Assembly: GCA_038850545.1 (NCBI GenBank)
Contig: JAWCLS010000001.1
Location: forward strand, 4,285 to 68,284
Reading direction: 5' to 3'
DNA length: 64,000 nt
From: Candidatus Bathyarchaeia archaeon
Lineage (GTDB): Archaea > Thermoproteota > Bathyarchaeia > Bathyarchaeales > Bathycorpusculaceae
Below, one piece after another: positions 1-58,928 of this stretch. Both the position numbers and the translations under genes were made by a program. The notes under the pieces are model-generated. The model ran no database searches. It had not been told where the DNA came from and was given only the letters and a program-made list of their open reading frames with translations. Numbering within the stretch: the first letter of the stretch is position 1; each line of letters begins with the position of its first letter.

Positions 1-304
1 CCAGAGCCTGCCCCAACTTCAAGCACTTTGTGGCCTACTTCCAACTGGAGGGCTTCATTCATTATTGCAACCATGTCTCGCCTAGCTCAGCCTTAAAGCT
101 GAGGCTATGTGGCGCTGAGATTGTTTGCCCAAAACCAATTGGAAGAGGTGTGTCCACAGCGCTGTAAGATTGCATATTTTCCGGCAGAAACCTTGCTCTA
201 GGCACGGTGCGCATAGCTCTAATCACTTTTTGAGAGCGGAGGATGCCCTCTTTCATGAGATTATCAATGAGTCTCTCCCAGTCTCTCTCCAAACATTCCA
301 CCAA
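1..304 (-). CDS. pcm: protein-L-isoaspartate O-methyltransferase, 3'-partial at the window edge and interrupted by a 32-nt insert (exon 1 at 109..304, exon 2 at 1..76)
   Basis: The listed ORF 62..304 matches the PCMT N-terminus up to GFGQTISAPH, then diverges and stops. In another minus-strand frame the sequence continues MVAIMNEALQLEVGHKVLEVGAGSG (PCMT block plus SAM motif I) to position 1. Removing 32 nt joins the two parts in frame. Confidence 0.85.
77..108 (-). other. putative bulge-helix-bulge (BHB) intron inside the pcm coding sequence
   Basis: The minus-strand RNA reads 5'-CGCC ACA UAGC(C)UCAGC UUUAAG GCUGAGCUA GGCG AGA C-3'. It has a 4-bp central helix (CGCC/GGCG) flanked by two 3-nt bulges (ACA, AGA) on opposite strands, plus a 9-bp inner hairpin. 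Cutting after the 2nd nt of each bulge removes exactly 32 nt and gives ...GCG CCA CAC AUG GUU... = A P H M V. Confidence 0.55.
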
Positions 305-366: not shown

Positions 367-2196
367 TTATTTCACAGTTACAGATTTTGCCAAGTTTCTC
401 GGCATGTCGGGGTTTAGCCCTCTTTCAACAGCCATATAATATGCTAAAAGCTGCAGTGGAATGACGAAGGGTATTGGCGACAAGACGTCTGGTATGCCTT
501 TTGGCACTTCCACATAGTCGTCGGCGAGCCTCTTAACTTCCTCGTCGCCTTCCTCTATGACCGCTATTATTGTGGCTCCTCTGGCTTTCATTTCCATAAT
601 GTTCCCTATTATTGTCTTGTGGGTTTCGTCTTTGGGACATATGAAAACCACGGGGAACTCGTGCTCGACTAGGCTTATTGGGCCGTGTTTGCTTTCGCCC
701 GCTGGAAAGGCTATGGATGGGATATAGGCTATTTCCATAAGTTTAAGTCTGCCCTCGTAAGCTGTTGCTGTGCTTATTCCACGGCCTAAGAAGAAGAACA
801 CTCCAGCATCTTTGTATTTTTTCGCGATGTTCTTCACTTTTTCTTCTTGACTTATTATTATTGTTTCAACCACGTCTGGCAACTTCTCAAGCTTTGCCTC
901 TAAAAAGTCCATCTCATCCTGGGAAATTTTCCCCCTTTTCTTTGCCAGCCTAAGGGCAAGTTGAGCAAGGACTGAAAGCTGAGAGGTGAAAGTTTTTGTT
1001 GCGGCAACTCCTATCTCTGGGCCGGATTGCTGACAAATATAGACCCGTGCAACCCTTGTTAGAGTGGAACCGATGACGTTGGTTAACCCTAGCACAGTTG
1101 CTGCCCTTTGACGGGCGATGTTCACCGCTGCAAGCGTGTCCGCCGTCTCGCCGGATTGGCTTACCGCCAAAATTGTGCTGTCAATGTTTACAGATTTACC
1201 GTGCTGTTCAACGAATTCTGAGGCTATCACAGGGTAGGTTGCGAGGAAAGCAAGTTTAGAAAACATGTAGGATGCAGCTAAACACGCATGGTAAGAGGTC
1301 CCGCAAGCCACCAAGAATACTTCACGGGCGCGGTCTAGGAAAGTTGCCATCAAGTCTAAATAGTGTTCCTGCAGCCTCAGCGTGTTCCGTAGACAGGCTG
1401 GCTGCTCATGAATCTCTTTTAACATGAAATGGGGGTAACCTTGCCTAACAGCCATTTCAGGCGTCCAATCAATAAGTTTGGGCTCCCGCATCACAAGGCT
1501 TGAATCCGCAATTTTTCTTATCTCGAAACCTTCCAAGGATAAGGTCACTAACTCTCCATCATCGATTATAACTGCCTTATTGGTTAGGGGTAGAAATGCT
1601 GGAATGTCTGAGGCGCAGTAGATTGCGTTTTCGCCTAATCCTACCACGAGGGGGCTCTCATGTTTGGCGCATACTATTTTGTTGGGTTCCTTAAGCGAAA
1701 TTACAGCTATGGCGTAAGAACCGTTAAGCTTCCTTACACTTTCAAGAACAGCATCCGTTAAGCTTATGGACGGATTATTTTTAAATGCATCCTCAATTAG
1801 GTGGGCTATAACTTCGGTGTCTGTTTTAGATTTGAAAATGTGGCCCTTGTTTTCCAATTCAAGCTTTAACTCGGCGAAGTTTTCTATTATTCCATTATGA
1901 ACGACAGCTATTTGCCAGTTACAGTCAACATGAGGGTGCGCATTAACCTCTAATGGGGCTCCATGGGTAGCCCACCTTGTGTGGCCTACGCCTATATTTC
2001 CAAGCAGAGAGTCGAGATTGTGAATCTTGTGAACTTCATCTATTTTTCCGCTGTCCTTTTTTACGTAGAGTTTGCCATTGTATATTGTTGCTTCGCCTAC
2101 TGAGTCGTAGCCGCGATATTCAAGTCTTTTTAAGGCTTGATGAATTACTGGCGCAGCGTTTCCATCTTTCATAATGCAGCCGAATATGCCACACAT
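367..2196 (-). CDS. glmS: glutamine--fructose-6-phosphate aminotransferase (isomerising)
   Basis: 609 aa with an MCGIFG N-terminal nucleophile, a class-II GATase domain and two SIS domains. The C-terminus ends ...AKSVTVK. Full-length family match. Confidence 0.95.
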   Translation of the reverse strand: MCGIFGCIMKDGNAAPVIHQALKRLEYRGYDSVGEATIYNGKLYVKKDSGKIDEVHKIHNLDSLLGNIGVGHTRWATHGAPLEVNAHPHVDCNWQIAVVHNGIIENFAELKLELENKGHIFKSKTDTEVIAHLIEDAFKNNPSISLTDAVLESVRKLNGSYAIAVISLKEPNKIVCAKHESPLVVGLGENAIYCASDIPAFLPLTNKAVIIDDGELVTLSLEGFEIRKIADSSLVMREPKLIDWTPEMAVRQGYPHFMLKEIHEQPACLRNTLRLQEHYLDLMATFLDRAREVFLVACGTSYHACLAASYMFSKLAFLATYPVIASEFVEQHGKSVNIDSTILAVSQSGETADTLAAVNIARQRAATVLGLTNVIGSTLTRVARVYICQQSGPEIGVAATKTFTSQLSVLAQLALRLAKKRGKISQDEMDFLEAKLEKLPDVVETIIISQEEKVKNIAKKYKDAGVFFFLGRGISTATAYEGRLKLMEIAYIPSIAFPAGESKHGPISLVEHEFPVVFICPKDETHKTIIGNIMEMKARGATIIAVIEEGDEEVKRLADDYVEVPKGIPDVLSPIPFVIPLQLLAYYMAVERGLNPDMPRNLAKSVTVK

Positions 2197-9521: not shown

Positions 9522-10346
9522 TTAGGTGCTTACTTTTGGGGGTGGGCGAACTGATTTCCCAAGCTTTTTGCGAAGTGCAATGCGGTAAAGTTTCCTTAAA
9601 GACTTCACGAGCTGTTCAACGCTCGGCAAGGCTGAATAGATTAGGGGTATGCGGTCGTATTCTGCCAGGCGAATTGAGTATTCGTCTGGTTTTACGCCGT
9701 GGAAAACGACTACGCTTGGTTTTAGGCTGCTCATTCGCACAAGCATCATAGGCGAGTTCTCATCTCCGATGTTCGTGAAGACAAGCGCCCTCTGGGTTGT
9801 GGCTCCAAAAAGCTGCGAATACTCAAAACCCGAAAGCGTCTCAATAGTTTTCTTGCTGTCAACAACAGTGTAGCCGTAAACCTCCTTAACATAGAGGCTT
9901 GAACACGCCGCAACCTCGCCTTTAAGGGCTTTACATAAATATTCAACACGAACGGGAATTGGAAATTCGCGTAAATCCAAAACAGCCATGCTGGGCGAAC
10001 TCGTCAGTCTAGCAAACTCCCGGATGAAACGGCTTCCCCTCTCCTCGTCAATTTTCAACAAGGCCCAAACAAACCTTCTCACAAACTTTGTTCCCGGACT
10101 CTTCCTCCGCCCGCTTTCATAGTCGCTTATTACAGAGGATGAAAGCAGCATCTTATCTGAAAGGGTTGTCTGGGAAACCGCGAAGAGCTCACGCCACTTC
10201 CTCATGGTTGCCCCAGGCTTGCTTGAGAGGATAATCTCCCCAGCGATTCTCCTTGCAAGAACCTCGCGAACACTGGGAGACACAGACATGCAAGCGCCCT
10301 TCCAGTCCGCCAAGTTCTCCCTAAAAGCGTGCAAGTATAAAACCAT
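9522..10346 (-). CDS. XRE-type HTH transcriptional regulator (COG1709-like)
   Basis: MRKWRELFAVSQTTLSDKMLLSSSVISDYESGRRKSPG is an XRE/HTH_3 signature followed by a conserved archaeal C-terminal domain. The true start may be the internal Met at 10289. Confidence 0.7.
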   Translation of the reverse strand: MVLYLHAFRENLADWKGACMSVSPSVREVLARRIAGEIILSSKPGATMRKWRELFAVSQTTLSDKMLLSSSVISDYESGRRKSPGTKFVRRFVWALLKIDEERGSRFIREFARLTSSPSMAVLDLREFPIPVRVEYLCKALKGEVAACSSLYVKEVYGYTVVDSKKTIETLSGFEYSQLFGATTQRALVFTNIGDENSPMMLVRMSSLKPSVVVFHGVKPDEYSIRLAEYDRIPLIYSALPSVEQLVKSLRKLYRIALRKKLGKSVRPPPKVST

Positions 10347-17030: not shown

Positions 17031-18089
17031 ATGAAAGGGAGCCCGTTGTCGTTGATTGAAATTGATGGGAGCCAAAAAAGCGGAAGCGGAACAATACTTA
17101 GGCTTTCAGTAGCCCTAGCGTCAATGCTTGGAAAGCCCCTCCACATATACAACATTAGGCAGAATAGGCCTCAGCCAGGGTTAAGGCCTCAACACTTGGA
17201 AGCCGTATTAACCGCGGCTAAACTCTGCGAAGCCCAAGTGAAAGGAGCAACGCTGAACTCCCGAGAGCTTTGGTTCACCCCAAAAGAAGTCTTAGGCGGA
17301 AAATTCGAGGCTGAAATTGGCACAGCAGGCAGCATCCCAATGCTTATCATGACGGTTCTGCCCATATGCATTTTCGCAAAAAACAGGGTTAATCTTCACA
17401 TTTCTAAGGGTGGAACAGATGTTTCCCATTCGCCAACAATAAACTATATGCGAAACGTGTTTCTACCCGTATTAAAGCGCATGGGAATAGACGCGTCTAT
17501 AACAGTTCACAAGTATGGCTATTACCCGAAGGGCATGGGCGAGGTAACCCTAACTGTTGAGCCTTGCAAGGAGCTGAAGCCGCTGCGTTTAGAAGAGTTC
17601 GGCGCCTTAACAGCCATCAAAGGAGTTTCAGTTTGCACCTTCCTAACTGAAAGAAAAGTTGCCGAACGCCAAGCAACCGCAGCAAATAACTATTTAAAGG
17701 CTAAAGGCGCCGCCGCCGACATACAAATAATAAATGACCAGTCGAATCCTCTGCAGAAGGGGAGTTCCCTAGTTTTGTGGGCTGAAACTGACAAAGGCGC
17801 CTTGCTGGGCGCAGACGCCATAGGGGAACCCAGAAAAACAAGTGAGGCTGTTGGAGTGGAAGCCGCTGAAAAACTATGGATGGAGATTTCTGCAAAGGCC
17901 ACGGTCGACGTGCACTTGGCTGACATGCTAATTCCCTACGTAGCCCTAGCTAGGGGCAAATCGGCATACCTAACAAGAAGCGTTTCCGACCATTTGGAAA
18001 CAAACATTTGGCTTGCCGAGGCTCTTCTCGGAGTTAAGTTCAAAATCGAAAAAGTCAACGGGCTCTACAAAGTGGAAAAGGTTGACTAA
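17031..18089 (+). CDS. rtcA: RNA 3'-terminal phosphate cyclase
   Basis: GSQKSGSGTILRLSVALAS plus full-length RtcA similarity (352 aa). Confidence 0.9.
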   Translation: MKGSPLSLIEIDGSQKSGSGTILRLSVALASMLGKPLHIYNIRQNRPQPGLRPQHLEAVLTAAKLCEAQVKGATLNSRELWFTPKEVLGGKFEAEIGTAGSIPMLIMTVLPICIFAKNRVNLHISKGGTDVSHSPTINYMRNVFLPVLKRMGIDASITVHKYGYYPKGMGEVTLTVEPCKELKPLRLEEFGALTAIKGVSVCTFLTERKVAERQATAANNYLKAKGAAADIQIINDQSNPLQKGSSLVLWAETDKGALLGADAIGEPRKTSEAVGVEAAEKLWMEISAKATVDVHLADMLIPYVALARGKSAYLTRSVSDHLETNIWLAEALLGVKFKIEKVNGLYKVEKVD

Positions 18090-18091
18090 CT

Positions 18092-19510
18092 TTGAAGGCT
18101 AAAGTTAGGGGAATATACACAACAGCCTTAACAAAACTGCTTCTGGAAAACGGCTTCCAAATTGTTCAGCCTTCCCAAGCCATAAAAACACGCTTCAGCA
18201 TTCAAGAAACTAACGAGCCTACAGACATTAAAATAAAGGATAGACATGACCTTCAAGGAGTGGTTGTTTTAGGCACAGCCGAAGCCACAAAAGCATTCCA
18301 TTCAGTTATACATTCATCCCTTGAAGACGCCATAACCAGAAAATGGAACGTAAGCATTGACGGCATTTACAAAGGAAACATTGTAGGCGGAGACGAAAGC
18401 GCTGTTTACGTCCAAATAGGAGAGGAAACTGTTGGAATGCTTCCTGTTTTGGAAGCCCCAAACGAAAAACAAAGAGAAATAATCGTTCAGGTTGAACGGA
18501 AAAGAATGGGCAGAAAAACTCCAGTTTTAACAACCCAGCTCAAAATCGTCGGGAAATATGCCATACTCGCAAAAAACAGCAAGGTTGGCGTGAGCCTAAA
18601 AATCCGCGACATAAACAAGCGGGCGGAACTTTACGCTCTGGGAAAACAGCTATGCCCCGAGGGTTGGGGAATAATCTGGCGAGAGCCAGCAGCCCAAATG
18701 CAAAAGGATTTTTTGGAAAAAGAGATCATGAAACTTGCTGAGAAAGTTAAAACTTTAAACGAGAGAGCAGCATCCGCGAAGGCTCCAGTTCTCTTGGTTG
18801 AGGGATTATACTTCATGGACGTTGAGTTTCCATACTTCTCAAAAAGGAAACTAGACGAGCTGAGGGCTTCAGTGACGCCGACCCTTGAGGGACACCACTT
18901 CTACAAAACCTGCGGAGGCAAACTTTCAGCCGCCCTGCAAATGGCTGAAAAACTTCTGGAAAAGGGAAAAAGCAAAGCAGAAATGGAAAAGCTTTTCAAA
19001 ATGCAAGTTCAGCCGGAGTTTCCAGAGGAAGGCTCAACTGTGAATGTGGAACACGTAAAGCTAAGCGGCTTAGTTTTAAACCTTGGACAAGCCACAATAG
19101 AAGCCATGAACAGCGAGAAAATAAAATACTGGAGAACCATCAAAGCGAACGGCTTCTACGACGGATTAGGCGTGGCAAAAGAGGTTGGCGACAAAGCAGT
19201 AAGCGAGACAAAACCAGGCGAATGGCGCATAACCACAAACTATTTCTCAAAAAATGGAGAATGGAAAGGAGCCTACATAAACCTAAACACGCCAGTGGAA
19301 GTCTACCCGAAGACAATACGCTATGTAGACTTGGAAGTCGACGTGTGCATCCGCCCAAACGGTGAAGTCAGAGTCATAGACATGGAAAAACTTGAGAAGG
19401 CTTTTGAAAGGGGCTTTTTAAACAAAGCGCTCTTTGAAAAAGCTAGAGAAACAGTGGAAGCTCTTACGGAAAAAGATTTTATTAAAAAATTTTCGGCTAA
19501 CTTTATTTAG
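18092..19510 (+). CDS. fau-1: RNA-binding protein / probable ribonuclease FAU-1 (RNase E/G-like, DUF402)
   Basis: (M)KAKVRGIYTTALTKLLLENGF is the FAU-1 N-terminal signature. TTG start lies 3 nt after the rtcA stop. Confidence 0.85.
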   Translation: MKAKVRGIYTTALTKLLLENGFQIVQPSQAIKTRFSIQETNEPTDIKIKDRHDLQGVVVLGTAEATKAFHSVIHSSLEDAITRKWNVSIDGIYKGNIVGGDESAVYVQIGEETVGMLPVLEAPNEKQREIIVQVERKRMGRKTPVLTTQLKIVGKYAILAKNSKVGVSLKIRDINKRAELYALGKQLCPEGWGIIWREPAAQMQKDFLEKEIMKLAEKVKTLNERAASAKAPVLLVEGLYFMDVEFPYFSKRKLDELRASVTPTLEGHHFYKTCGGKLSAALQMAEKLLEKGKSKAEMEKLFKMQVQPEFPEEGSTVNVEHVKLSGLVLNLGQATIEAMNSEKIKYWRTIKANGFYDGLGVAKEVGDKAVSETKPGEWRITTNYFSKNGEWKGAYINLNTPVEVYPKTIRYVDLEVDVCIRPNGEVRVIDMEKLEKAFERGFLNKALFEKARETVEALTEKDFIKKFSANFI

Positions 19511-21440: not shown

Positions 21441-22232
21441 TTGAATCTTCAAAAACCCGAACGCGAATTATCAATAGAGGAAGTTCTAAGGTGGACTTTT
21501 ACAATTTATTCCAAAAATTTTATCATGTTTTTCACACCATTTCTTATCACAGCACTACTTTACGGAAGCTTAGGCATCATATTCGAAAATTTTGTCACCA
21601 CAGTTACAGCTAACATTCCAGCTCCCGGAGCACCCGTAGAAGAGATACAAAACTGGTTTTGGAGCTTCATTCTTACTTTTCTGGCTATAGCCTCAGTTAT
21701 GGGTATAATATCTTGGATAATAGGCACAGTTGTAAATGGGGTTTGTGTTAAGTGCGCTGCGGACGTGATAGAAAGGGGCAAGGCAGTTCTCGGAGAAGCC
21801 TTAAATTATGCAGTCTACAAGATTTTTTCCCTTTTGGCGGCGGCACTTGTGACTGCGATATTAATTGGGTTGGGCTTTATCGCGTTGATAGTGCCCGGAA
21901 TAATCCTCTTAGTAATGTTTTCTTTAGTTGTTCCAGCAATCATAATAGAAGACATTGGAGCCCTAGAGAGTTTATCTAGAAGCAGGAGGCTCGTAAGCAG
22001 ACGCTGGCTAAAAACATTCATCCTACTTTTAATAGTATATTTAGCGGTGCTCTTCACATCTTACGTTGGAAGGCTTATTGGGCAGCCTCTAGGGCTTTTC
22101 AACGTCATAGTAAGCAACGTCACCGCAGCCTTCGTTCAACCCATTATTCCAATTTCAATAACAGTATATTATTATGCCATGTTAGCGAAGGAGGCCCAGA
22201 GGGTTCCTCCGCCTCCTCCGCCGCCCTTCTAA
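21441..22232 (+). CDS. integral membrane protein, unknown function, poly-Pro C-terminus
   Basis: 263 aa, about 6 TM segments, ending RVPPPPPPPF. Confidence 0.65.
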   Translation: MNLQKPERELSIEEVLRWTFTIYSKNFIMFFTPFLITALLYGSLGIIFENFVTTVTANIPAPGAPVEEIQNWFWSFILTFLAIASVMGIISWIIGTVVNGVCVKCAADVIERGKAVLGEALNYAVYKIFSLLAAALVTAILIGLGFIALIVPGIILLVMFSLVVPAIIIEDIGALESLSRSRRLVSRRWLKTFILLLIVYLAVLFTSYVGRLIGQPLGLFNVIVSNVTAAFVQPIIPISITVYYYAMLAKEAQRVPPPPPPPF

Positions 22233-24362: not shown

Positions 24363-26150
24363 GTGAACCTTTTTGTATTCCTTTTCATATGGGCTTTTGT
24401 GTGGTTTATTCCAATACCGCCTAGGAAAACTGGGTGGAGGAAGCCTTCGCGCATAATTTCACTATTATTGGGTTTGTTTCTCTTCTTCATAATTCAGTTT
24501 TCAAGGCCGCCCCTTAGCATTTTCGCATTTTTGCTCGTGTTGCTTAGGCTTTTCGCTGCTTTTGTGGAGTCAGCTTTTTCCGTAAGGCGTGCAACTTTTG
24601 AGGAAACGGAAAAGCATTACTACTACAGTAAGCGTATTCCTCTGAAGGTTTCAGCAAAAATTAGGGCAAAAATAATAGGCATTCTGTTCATTCTCTATTT
24701 GCTCGCCACCTCCATGTTGATAGTTTTTTGGCAGGTTCAAAGGGTGGCAAACGCCTCTTACTTTAACAGTTTCATCAGCATAAGATCAGGACTGCCCTTT
24801 AACACTGGAATCCCGGATAATATGGTGCGCCTCGTCACAGAGGAGCTCGCCGTTTCCATAGCCAGAAGGCACATGTCAGAATTTGGAAGCAACACTCAAG
24901 TTTTAGGGTGCCACATAACGAAAACTCCCGAAGGCGAACTTGTATGGGTCGCCGTTATAGGCTCAACTAACGTTATCGCGGAAAACTACGTTAAAGGATT
25001 CGTTATAATAGACGCCGCAGACCCAAATACTCCGCCGAAAATACTGAAGGAAGAGTTTGCTATTGGAGAAGGCTTATGGTTTGACCACAACATTCATTTC
25101 CGCTCCTACATGAACGACATTTCAAGAAGCTATGGCATAGCCTACATTACATGGGACTTCGCAACAGAAGAAGCAGCATACATTGTGGCACGTTACAACG
25201 TGGGCTTCGACTTAATTAGAAGATATGAAACCCCGATGGTTTACGACTCAGCAGGCAAAGTGTACCGCCAAGCAGAGTCTCTTTCTGAAGTCCCCAGGTG
25301 GATTACGCAGGTTTATGATGAAGACTGGCTTGAGGATATGATAAACGAGATGGGAGGCTTCAGAAGAGGCGAAGGCTTCGATTATTGGGCAGGAGGCTTC
25401 CTATGGATTATTCCGCCGAGCCGCGAGCGCTTCGAAATGACGGAGGACACCCGCTACATTGTAGACCCAGAAACAGGCGACGTTGTAGCCTTGGTCTGTG
25501 TAAACCCCGTCGGAAACACGCGAACCCTCTCCGGAGTTTTCAAAGCCACACGAGACGGCATATTCTTCTACGATTTCAGGCAAGCCAACTACATTTCGGG
25601 CATGACCGCCGAAGACTTTGTTGAAGGGAGGCTTCCAAAGCCTGCAGCAGGCATCTACGACGCTGAAATGCCTCTGCTGTATCCCGTTGAAGTTTCTCCG
25701 GGCAAATATAGGCTTGCGTGGTATGTGCCCATTTACTGGCGGGAGGGCACATGGGAAAAAGATGAAACCATATACTTGGCTGGCTTCGCCATAGTTGACG
25801 CAGAAGAAACAAGCAAAATAGCCATAACAATGAATGAAGAAGGCTTAACAAGCGAACAGCTTGTGCGCAAAACGCGGTTAGACTTTCTGAAACTTTTCGG
25901 AGTGGTAACCTATCTAGAAGTTGATGCAAAAGTTTTGGGGAAATATGAATATGTGGAAGAGGGAACAACGCATATAGTTCTGCGTCTGGACAACGCAACC
26001 TACCAGTGGGTGGAAGCAACTCCGAAGGATATCCCAACCCTTCAATGGAACGAGCTGATGGCAACAAAGGCGGGAGACAACGTAACAATGCAAATTGAAA
26101 AACGTGGAGAAAAGTGGGTAATAACAGCCTTTGAAAACCTAAACGTTTAA
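24363..26150 (+). CDS. large membrane-anchored protein of unknown function
   Basis: 595 aa with a GTG start behind AAGGGTGA. It has about 4 N-terminal TM helices and a roughly 470-aa soluble Trp/Tyr-rich domain. No family recognised. Confidence 0.7.
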   Translation: MNLFVFLFIWAFVWFIPIPPRKTGWRKPSRIISLLLGLFLFFIIQFSRPPLSIFAFLLVLLRLFAAFVESAFSVRRATFEETEKHYYYSKRIPLKVSAKIRAKIIGILFILYLLATSMLIVFWQVQRVANASYFNSFISIRSGLPFNTGIPDNMVRLVTEELAVSIARRHMSEFGSNTQVLGCHITKTPEGELVWVAVIGSTNVIAENYVKGFVIIDAADPNTPPKILKEEFAIGEGLWFDHNIHFRSYMNDISRSYGIAYITWDFATEEAAYIVARYNVGFDLIRRYETPMVYDSAGKVYRQAESLSEVPRWITQVYDEDWLEDMINEMGGFRRGEGFDYWAGGFLWIIPPSRERFEMTEDTRYIVDPETGDVVALVCVNPVGNTRTLSGVFKATRDGIFFYDFRQANYISGMTAEDFVEGRLPKPAAGIYDAEMPLLYPVEVSPGKYRLAWYVPIYWREGTWEKDETIYLAGFAIVDAEETSKIAITMNEEGLTSEQLVRKTRLDFLKLFGVVTYLEVDAKVLGKYEYVEEGTTHIVLRLDNATYQWVEATPKDIPTLQWNELMATKAGDNVTMQIEKRGEKWVITAFENLNV

Positions 26151-31268: not shown

Positions 31269-32606
31269 ATGCAAAGATTAAAAGTTATCATAATGGGTGC
31301 TGCTGGAAGAGACTTTCACAATTTTAACGTTTACTTTAGAAATAATGACGCCTACGAGGTTGTTGCCTTTACAGCCACGCAGGTTCCCGGAATTGAAGGG
31401 AGAATTTATCCTCCAGAACTTGCAGGCAAGAACTACCCAAATGGCATACCAATTTATCCGGAAGAGGATTTAGGCAGGCTGATAAGGGAGTATGACGTGG
31501 ACCAGGTGGTTTTCGCCTACAGTGATGTTTCCCACGAATATGTCATGCACAAAGCCTCCTTGGTTTTGGCGAATGGCGCTGACTTCAGGTTAATGGGCCC
31601 TAAAACGACAATGCTGAAGGCTAAGGTTCCAGTAATTTCAGTAGGCGCTGTTAGGACAGGCTCCGGAAAAAGCCAAACCTCCCGTCAAGTTGCAAAAATT
31701 TTGAAAAATAAAGGTTTAAAAATTGTTGTCGTTAGGCATCCCATGCCCTATGGAGACTTAAAAAAGCAGATTTGCCAACGTTTCGCCTCCTACGAAGACC
31801 TTGACAAGTACAACTGCACAGTTGAGGAAAGAGAGGAATATGAACACCACATAGACAATGGAGTGGTGGTTTACGCGGGAGTGGATTATGAAAAAATATT
31901 AAGAGAGGCGGAGAAAGAAGCGGACGTGATTGTGTGGGATGGAGGAAACAACGACTTACCCTTCTACAGGCCAGACCTACACATAGTCGTAGCCGACCCC
32001 CATAGAGCGGGACACGAAGTCTCATATCATCCCGGCGAGGCTAATCTGAGAATGGCGAACGTGGTGATAATAAACAAGGTTGATACAGCAGATCCCCAAA
32101 ATGTGGACAAAGTCAAAGAGAACATTAAAATGGTTAACCCAGACGCCGTGATCCTGGAGGCGGCATCGCCTATAACGGTTGACAGGCCAGATTTAATCAT
32201 GGGAAAACGTGTTCTGGTGATTGAGGATGGACCCACATTGACGCATGGTAACATGTCCTATGGGGCGGCGACAATTATAACAAAACAGCTTGGGGCAAGC
32301 GAGCTAGTCGACCCTAGACCGTATGCCGTGGGTTCAATAAAAGAAACTTATGAGAAATATCCCCATTTAGGAAATGTTCTCCCAGCGGTGGGTTACGGTG
32401 GGAGACAAATAGCCGAACTTAAGGAAACAATCACTCGCACGCCTTGTGATGTTGTGGTGATAGGAACCCCTGTGGACTTGAGAAGAGTCATGGCAATCGA
32501 CAAAACAGCAGTAAGAGTAAAATACGAGCTTAAAGTATTAGAGCCATTATCTCTAGAGCAGGTTCTAGAGGATTTCCTCAAAGGGATGAGAAAAAATGGG
32601 AAATGA
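31269..32606 (+). CDS. COG2403-family P-loop protein (predicted GTPase; cyclic 2,3-diphosphoglycerate synthetase-like family)
   Basis: KVIIMGAAGRDFHNFNVYFR plus Walker A GAVRTGSGKSQTS. The specific function is not assignable from sequence alone. Confidence 0.7.
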   Translation: MQRLKVIIMGAAGRDFHNFNVYFRNNDAYEVVAFTATQVPGIEGRIYPPELAGKNYPNGIPIYPEEDLGRLIREYDVDQVVFAYSDVSHEYVMHKASLVLANGADFRLMGPKTTMLKAKVPVISVGAVRTGSGKSQTSRQVAKILKNKGLKIVVVRHPMPYGDLKKQICQRFASYEDLDKYNCTVEEREEYEHHIDNGVVVYAGVDYEKILREAEKEADVIVWDGGNNDLPFYRPDLHIVVADPHRAGHEVSYHPGEANLRMANVVIINKVDTADPQNVDKVKENIKMVNPDAVILEAASPITVDRPDLIMGKRVLVIEDGPTLTHGNMSYGAATIITKQLGASELVDPRPYAVGSIKETYEKYPHLGNVLPAVGYGGRQIAELKETITRTPCDVVVIGTPVDLRRVMAIDKTAVRVKYELKVLEPLSLEQVLEDFLKGMRKNGK

Positions 32607-58803: not shown

Positions 58804-58928
58804 TGGCGCCGGGGAGGGGACTCGAACCCCTGCGAGCCCGAAGGCCCACTGGCTCTCCTGCTTATTCTAGCCCTTTATTATGGGGTTGGATCTCGAGGCC
58901 AGCGCGATAACCACTCCGCCACCCCGGC
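58804..58928 (-). tRNA. tRNA-Ser (anticodon CGA) with a 37-nt intron at the canonical 37/38 region (58855..58891) and a genomically encoded CCA
   Basis: Hand fold: acceptor GCCGGGG/CCCCGGC, discriminator G73, 3-bp D stem GCG/CGC and anticodon stem CUGGC/GCCAG. The loop is CU-CGA-GA after intron removal. It also has a long variable arm GGGCCUUCGGGCUC and a T arm AGGGG-UUCGAGU-CCCCU. Confidence 0.9.

Follow-up and report, generated by a model that had tools for sequence, protein, structure and literature searches.

Among archaeal protein-coding genes, introns that depend on the tRNA-splicing endonuclease have been represented for more than 20 years by a single example, the bulge-helix-bulge (BHB) intron in the pre-mRNA of the pseudouridine synthase gene cbf5 of some Crenarchaeota (Watanabe et al. 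2002; Yoshinari et al. 2006; Yokobori et al. 2009, PMC2738675). Here we describe a predicted intron of this kind in pcm, the gene for protein-L-isoaspartate O-methyltransferase (PCMT, PF01135), at the edge of a 64,000-nucleotide (nt) stretch of a Candidatus Bathyarchaeia archaeon genome (assembly GCA_038850545.1, contig JAWCLS010000001.1, positions 4,285 to 68,284), in the following called the window. On the comparative evidence given below it is very probable that the 32 nt at 108..77 are a real and conserved BHB intron within the pcm mRNA, and pcm would then probably join cbf5 as the second protein-coding gene in Archaea for which BHB splicing is known to be required. The class of mechanism would be that of the cbf5 intron, but host gene and lineage are new and the comparative support is unusually rich. 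A paper of 2020 gave cbf5 as the only protein-coding BHB intron reported, and one of 2025 cites the cbf5 work alone for mRNA. A full-text literature search, with most subscription journals outside its reach, returned no paper tying pcm or protein-coding genes of Bathyarchaeia to BHB introns. The original prediction for this DNA, which was made from the sequence alone, had likewise regarded cbf5 as essentially the sole protein-coding case, in agreement with the literature searched, where cbf5 alone was cited from 2020 to 2025.

Similar to the cbf5 intron, the pcm intron has a patchy distribution with gain and loss among relatives, and it also occurs in a TACK lineage that is expected to have the broad-specificity heterotetrameric splicing endonuclease EndA. 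This EndA type was found across TACK in a survey that had Bathyarchaeia outside its scope (PMC5829648). Relaxed motifs call for a host EndA of broad specificity, either (alpha-beta)2 with the Crenarchaea-specific loop or epsilon2. The hosts differ, as cbf5 introns belong to Desulfurococcales and Sulfolobales and the pcm intron to a PF01135 gene of Bathyarchaeia. Splicing of cbf5 was shown by reverse transcription PCR and in vitro cleavage, whereas we infer it for pcm, and candidate distal exon-exon helices were seen in pcm, which is a further difference. With relaxed HBh' introns of tRNAs (Marck and Grosjean 2003; PMC6379350) the pcm intron shares the 4-bp central helix, the 3-nt bulges, the presence of the inner helix h' and an exon-side helix that is weak or absent, and its size of 28-57 nt lies within the tRNA intron range of 11-175 nt. 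In contrast to these, it is not embedded in a tRNA body, and codons form the exon strand of its central helix, where protein and RNA constraints overlap. An mRNA has also been described as substrate of an archaeal splicing endonuclease in a euryarchaeon (PMC7714728, 2020); there the site is located in an untranslated leader and no reading frame is interrupted. Outside the Archaea, the HAC1/XBP1 introns (PMC13149111) are similar in being short, frame-changing mRNA introns that are removed without the spliceosome by an endonuclease and RtcB-type ligation (in HAC1 by tRNA ligase), with a truncated unspliced product. They differ in using the nuclease IRE1 and a twin stem-loop motif, and in that stress regulation is established for them.

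In the window, pcm is encoded on the minus strand and is truncated by the window end at position 1. A minus-strand open reading frame (ORF) at 62..304, read from about 304 down to 62, encodes the N-terminus of the methyltransferase up to ...DTPLPIGFGQTISAPH and continues through SLSFKAELGETWLQ into two stops, while the family-conserved continuation MVAIMNEALQLEVGHKVLEVGAGSG (MVAIMNEAL) starts at position 74 in a different frame and extends to the edge of the window. The insert at 108..77 thus splits the reading frame after ...GQTISAPH. Exon 1 (109..304) would provide the N-terminal 66 residues, ending with ...GQTISAP and the C of the His codon; its start codon is ambiguous (TTG at 304, GTG at 301 or TTG at 292), and relatives begin with MEKDWE.... 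The visible start of exon 2 (1..76) comprises 25 codons and would supply the AC of the His codon followed by MVAIMNEALQLEVGHKVLEVGAGSG. The unspliced 80-aa ORF matched PF01135 with E=1e-14 and the 91 aa obtained by splicing in silico with E=1.4e-25, and the latter match crosses the junction.

The predicted 32-nt intron AUAGCCUCAGCUUUAAGGCUGAGCUAGGCGAG (77..108, minus strand) has its 5' cut at 109/108 and its 3' cut at 77/76. The 5' strand of the central helix H is CGCC (111..114), which pairs with 82..79 and consists of exon bases, namely positions 2-3 of the Ala codon GCG and positions 1-2 of the Pro codon CCA; the 3' strand GGCG (79..82) consists of intron bases. Between H and the inner helix lies the 5' bulge of three nt, ACA (108..110), starting with the Pro wobble A and cut after AC. 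The inner helix h' and the loop that it closes, UAGC(C)UCAGC UUUAAG GCUGAGCUA (83..107), has 9-10 bp and one bulged C. On the opposite strand, the 3' bulge of three nt, AGA (76..78; ANA in relatives), is cut after AG, and its exon-side closure is the pair G115-C75 alone. If each bulge is cut behind its second base, 108..77 is excised and GCG CCA CAC AUG GUU (A-P-H-M-V) results. The tetranucleotide ACAU occurs at 110..107 and again at 76..73, with a spacing of 34 nt. As a target-site duplication this direct repeat was rejected, as repeat-to-repeat excision removes 34 nt and leaves the frame broken; the repeat simply represents the two bulge contexts (AC/AU and A/ACAU). The original prediction had described the frame break after GQTISAPH with resumption 32 nt further on, the CGCC/ACA/hairpin/GGCG/AGA layout with bulges on opposite strands, the removal of exactly 32 nt with restoration of A-P-H-M-V, and the failure of the 34-nt excision to restore the frame, and each of these was reproduced on the window sequence with the same bases and coordinates.

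Because the outer exon-exon helix h consists of a single base pair, the pcm intron belongs to the relaxed HBh' form, as had been proposed from its one G-C pair. H, the intron-side bulge and h' are intact, and the exon-side bulge is not properly closed. The single pair G115-C75 is G-U in one relative (L060), and the next position pairs only if the Ser wobble is U. An adjacent outer helix was rejected as a candidate, as it was not conserved across loci.

In the proposed reaction, exon CGCC would pair with intron GGCG to form the 4-bp central helix in the transcript. The intron hairpin h' would close the 5' bulge ACA, with the 3' bulge ANA closed on the exon side by the single G-C pair. EndA would cut after the second base of each bulge and leave 2',3'-cyclic phosphate and 5'-OH ends, and RtcB would ligate the exons to ...GCG CCA CAC AUG GUU..., with the intron probably being circularised too. 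The complete protein-L-isoaspartate O-methyltransferase would be encoded by the spliced mRNA alone. Removal by the tRNA-splicing endonuclease with ligation by RtcB, as for the introns of tRNA, rRNA and cbf5, is the reading with the best support. The anatomy, conservation, covariation, exon constraint and in silico restoration of an intact gene are shown here, and the cleavage by EndA, the ligation by RtcB and the acceptance of relaxed motifs by the host enzyme are inferred.

A protein search with the spliced N-terminus retrieved 549 homologues, of which the best 120 were looked at for names and lengths. The named sources among these 120 were Bathyarchaeia or Bathyarchaeota throughout, and approximately 110 were N-terminal fragments of 63-91 aa that stopped just past SAPH, with differing tails (SLSFKAELGETWLQ, SSALLLG, SLSHTC, SPANAG, G and others). 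When GTDB was scanned with one genome for each species, 383 species showed a relative; the comparisons reported here use the best 80 loci, which are all from Bathyarchaeia, one of them carrying just the label Thermoproteota. An insert between the identical two nucleotides was present in 38 of the 80 loci as well as in the window and absent from the other 42. The nearest representatives (L055, L071 and L060) are about 80-83% identical to the window DNA, and the N-fragment of the window itself had no exact counterpart in the protein collection. Inserts were 28 nt (one locus), 30 nt (seven), 31 nt (14), 32 nt (nine and the window), 33 nt (three), 35 nt (one), 36 nt (two) and 57 nt (one) long. All 13 inserts with a length that is a multiple of three contain an in-frame stop, and the remaining ones shift the frame and reach a stop within 17 codons. 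With these stops, and with lengths in all classes modulo three, the inserts are not translatable and no single frameshift rescues the gene.

The insert-bearing loci were derived from many independent studies and assemblers and include contigs of 0.6-2 Mb; among their sources are hot springs of Tengchong (DRTY/JZ) and Kamchatka and, for L035, SPRUCE peat. Two intron-bearing populations were represented by 18 contigs each from independent JGI samples, and both were always called as two genes, namely a fragment of 70 or 77 aa and, behind it, a separate C-terminal PCMT fragment of about 160 aa (162 or 158). An assembly artefact is excluded. When the spliced proteins were placed in a rough neighbour-joining tree, intron-bearing genes made up one large clade and were also found on scattered branches among intronless genes. 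The intron is apparently old within Bathyarchaeia, with a hairpin that changed in sequence and length, and was apparently lost precisely in many lineages, as far as a tree that is too weak for counting gain and loss events can indicate. For the cbf5 intron, an old origin with repeated precise losses has also been proposed (PMC2738675).

All 39 sequences fit the layout CGCC / AC(A/G) / hairpin / G(G/A)CG / ANA. CGCC is invariant throughout, the 5' bulge is ACA in 38 of 39 sequences (ACG in L062), and the 3' strand GGCG of H is invariant except for GACG in L031, which places a C.A opposite CGCC. In a MAFFT alignment, 99% of the cells of H and 100% of those of the four basal h' pairs were paired, and three of these four basal pairs had changed on both sides (U-A to C-G, A-U to G-C and C-G to U-A). 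When the 3' partners were slid by 1-3 columns as a control, 15-37% of the cells were paired; over the MAFFT and the model-fitted alignments together the slid controls reached 15-40%, and the observed covariation was attained by 0-4 of 500 shuffles, depending on the measure. Compensatory changes were found in eight of nine h' pairs in the model-fitted alignment, which was built to the structure and therefore leans towards it. RNAalifold, which had the sequences as its sole input, arrived at H and h' as well. From 36 orthologous sites a covariance model was constructed, which scored the window site with 56.9 bits (E=5e-14) as the sole strong match in the 64-kb window, and neither in the window nor in 531 kb of related DNA did it identify a site other than pcm. 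The original prediction had suggested looking in related pcm loci for the same insert with compensatory changes, and this was found, with the same site filled in 38 other species and covariation in h'. Decayed helices and further disruptions in relatives, which it had named as signs of a pseudogene, were not seen; on the contrary, helices and exons were kept. All predictions of the BHB reading that could be examined at the sequence level, namely site, helices, junction and an intact PCMT, held.

The locus with the sole central-helix mismatch among the sequences (L031, 3194..3230) nonetheless has an intact exon 2. The longest intron (57 nt; L066, 3185..3248) contains a G+C-rich inner hairpin of the 20-bp class with -31.7 kcal/mol, and its core, CGCC/ACA/GGCG/AGA, is unchanged.

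Upon BHB splicing in silico, exon 2 was open over 161-164 codons and ended with LGGVAFVPLTG.YGH in every locus with a whole exon 2. The complete spliced product of L055 matched PF01135 from end to end (E=2e-67) and aligned without gaps to the PIMT of Pyrococcus furiosus (PDB 1jg1; E=5.5e-59), in which the junction peptide GQTVSAPHMVAIM is identical. Intronless orthologues have GCN CCN CAY ATG GTN without interruption, and one of them (L008) carries GCGCCACACATGGTT, exactly the predicted ligation junction. The intron-bearing pcm therefore appears to be under selection and intact after splicing in silico. The Ala-Pro codons that hold the exon strand of H were GCG-CCA in all 38 intron-bearing genes, compared with GCG in 17 of 38 and CCA in 12 of 38 intronless genes (Fisher 2e-8 and 3.5e-11, with shared ancestry ignored). 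Beside these tests, which were not corrected for kinship, stands the spread of intron-bearing genes over several branches of the rough neighbour-joining tree. The Ser wobble just outside H was free in intron-bearing and intronless groups alike. This pattern suggests that the exon bases of H and the Pro wobble are constrained by RNA pairing.

When longer flanks were included, RNAalifold paired CCNCUUCCA (148..140) with UGGAAG.NGG (43..34) and GGNUUYG (136..130) with YGARGCC (57..51). In the window, the 5' strands of these candidate distal helices (126..148, minus strand) are CCUCUUCCA at 148..140 for helix A, GGUUUUG at 136..130 for helix B and CA at 127..126 for helix C, and the 3' strands (34..61, minus strand) are UG at 61..60 for C, UGAAGCC at 57..51 for B, and UGGAAG at 43..38 with AGG at 36..34 for A. 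As these regions encode conserved residues, their conservation alone is no proof of pairing. Synonymous sites inside the distal pairs were selectively fixed in intron-bearing genes, and adjacent unpaired wobbles were free. Leu-12 was encoded by CTT at a frequency of 0.95 in intron-bearing versus 0.57 in intronless genes, Leu+11 by TTG at 0.97 versus 0.57, and Ala+8 by GCC in 36 of 38 versus 11 of 38. On average, 17.2 of the 18 distal pairs were formed in intron-bearing genes versus 15.1 in intronless ones, and the trend was kept in most local comparisons within sub-clades. These data are suggestive of a distal exon-exon clamp that may replace the missing outer BHB helix. A bolder extension, which we consider unlikely, is that the pcm intron serves as an expression gate through EndA/RtcB activity and would be recognised through the CCNCUUCCA/UGGAAGNNGG and GGNUUYG/YGARGCC clamps in place of the outer helix. 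Such a gate would resemble HAC1/XBP1 splicing, which gates a stress response; stress regulation in pcm is pure speculation. If true, gate and clamp together would mean that the archaeal tRNA-splicing machinery can recognise a protein-coding message in a manner not described before.

The fold of the site was compared with chance expectation. In a 71-nt context, the minimum free energy (MFE) structure contained the hairpin and three of four H pairs (z = -2.5). In a 145-nt context all four CGCC/GGCG pairs were formed, together with the ACA bulge of 3 nt and the hairpin (-54.2 kcal/mol, z = -3.8), with a stability matched by none of 200 shuffles. A loose BHB scan returned 1744 candidates per window strand versus about 1480 in shuffled sequences, a strict scan 54-56 versus 41-72, and motifs that combine a central helix of four G/C pairs with a 3-nt bulge and with an inner stem of 4 bp or more occurred 10-12 times per strand versus 3-13 times. 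Taken alone, the fold exceeds chance only weakly. What is above chance is that both cut sites match the break in the conserved peptide's frame to the nucleotide and that relatives have conserved the site. The BHB scans, combined with an ORF-merging test, revealed no further protein-coding intron in the window: ORF-merging candidates from the loose scan were rejected as ordinary gene boundaries, and the two from the strict scan as antisense to real genes. Positions 1..304 had no Rfam match. A self-splicing group I or II intron was rejected, since inserts of 28-57 nt compare with ribozyme cores of hundreds of nt, and given this lack of an Rfam match. A dispersed mobile element was rejected as well, as neither the window nor 531 kb of loci contained paralogous copies of the intron.

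Several of our results weigh against a BHB intron in pcm. The site falls outside the canonical hBHBh' definition, by which both outer helices have at least two Watson-Crick pairs (PMC7714728): h' has 9-10 bp and h a single pair. The 145-nt MFE structure of the window places the 3' site in a 6-nt strand of an internal loop. BHB-like motifs are common by chance, so that the motif alone is no evidence. The contrasts between intron-bearing and intronless genes are phylogenetically non-independent. A search of JGI metagenome contigs for the spliced junction returned four matches, all of them distant (67-89% identity) intronless genomic alleles, and among protein calls no full-length match above 84% identity was found for the spliced product of an 18-contig population. 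Because no full-length call exceeded this identity, these data contain neither complementary DNA evidence nor a near-identical intronless allele. Genes for EndA or RtcB were not detected in the window by Pfam (70 ORFs), nor in the window and related loci by a regular-expression search for catalytic motifs.

We considered three other explanations for the interrupted gene. The two parts of pcm might be translated separately, as an N-fragment of about 66 residues with a junk tail and a C-fragment of 162 residues that come together as an active methyltransferase. In this case the conserved UAGGCGA would serve as ribosome-binding site and the hairpin as spacer, with the C-fragment beginning at the ATG two bases past the insert. 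This ATG is indeed in frame right behind the insert, gene callers predict two genes, and AGGCGA, located 3-4 nt before the ATG, is one base off the Shine-Dalgarno core AGGUGA. However, this ATG codes for the universally conserved Met in SAPHM and is present in intronless genes too, the tails of the N-fragments are unconserved (0 to 14 residues), and the break lies inside a conserved motif. A split gene would also leave unexplained why fixation of CGCC and of the Pro wobble A is limited to genes with the insert, why GGCG is exactly complementary with 3-nt bulges on both sides, and why precise removal recreates the orthologous sequence. We therefore consider a split gene improbable. Translational recoding, in which the ribosome hops over the insert, in the manner of phage T4 gene 60, or shifts frame with the hairpin as stimulator, could draw on the stable hairpin directly behind the His codon and on the ACAU repeat at both borders. 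A bypass landing on the second CAU would, however, continue in the wrong frame, and the in-frame triplet before the AUG is variable (NAC, being GAC, AAC or UAC). A frameshift would need a constant offset, but insert lengths are 0, 1 and 2 modulo three and in-frame stops occur. Neither does a hop need the invariant CGCC/GGCG pairing, and recoding appears very improbable to us.

That the insert is the scar of an insertion, either resembling a miniature inverted-repeat transposable element or left by repair, in a decaying pcm, or that it is an assembly artefact, would agree with pcm being untranslatable as it stands. In addition, an unrelated frameshift of 5 nt was found in a related intronless pcm that lies on a short ENA contig. 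This contig (k141_433867; P0001/L085, 620..690) was considered as a second intron and rejected, as it appears to be the genomic intronless pcm of a close relative with about 5 nt missing. Its gap follows ...GHVYT, where ACAG/ATTGTG stands in place of the ACA GTT GAG ATT GTG of relatives, and two overlapping PCMT fragments were called; the frameshift reflects either a mistake in assembly or a genuine pseudogene, not an intron. Against decay of pcm, the same site is filled in 38 species, exon 2 is intact and conserved everywhere, compensatory changes maintain the helices, and there are no other copies of the element in 531 kb. Pseudogene and artefact are thus close to refuted and, in our view, extremely improbable.

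In NCBI and JGI records, the N-terminal pieces of 63-88 aa are named 'hypothetical protein' or 'protein-L-isoaspartate O-methyltransferase, partial', with a C-terminal piece of about 160 aa called separately; this mis-annotation of pcm as two genes is systematic and affects hundreds of metagenomic records. With the gene split into two pieces by annotation, these genomes seem to have a broken pcm or none. BHB-aware annotation would mend the pcm calls and could reveal further cases. A second host gene, in a globally abundant uncultured lineage, would indicate that mRNA splicing by the tRNA machinery is more than the curiosity of one gene, and dozens of natural variants of the pcm intron represent ready comparative data on the needs of EndA outside tRNA.

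Directly upstream of pcm in the window lies glmS, encoding glutamine-fructose-6-phosphate aminotransferase with SIS and GATase domains (367..2196, minus strand). The order glmS-pcm on one strand was also found in relatives, and the neighbourhood is conserved. Elsewhere in the window, four long ORFs (24363..26150 with 595 aa, 31269..32606 with 445 aa, 9522..10346 with 274 aa and 21441..22232 with 263 aa) had no Pfam match at E<=1e-5; they are located in a well-annotated housekeeping region with thermosome, proteasome, Kae1/Bud32, SerRS and the PolD small subunit. A gene for the RNA 3'-terminal phosphate cyclase RtcA (PF01137; 17031..18089, plus strand) directly precedes one for a FAU-1/RNase E-G-like protein (PF10150 and DUF402). 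Both RNA-end-processing genes together span 17031..19510 on the plus strand, with no rtcB or endA nearby. ARAGORN reported no tRNA anywhere in the window. By Rfam, a tRNA gene was identified at 58807..58928 on the minus strand (RF00005, 48.2 bits) with an unaligned stretch of 41 nt in the anticodon loop. By our own reading this is a tRNA-Ser(CGA) with a 37-nt intron at position 37/38, the BHB of which looks imperfect, with one C.A in the central helix and without a clear inner helix.

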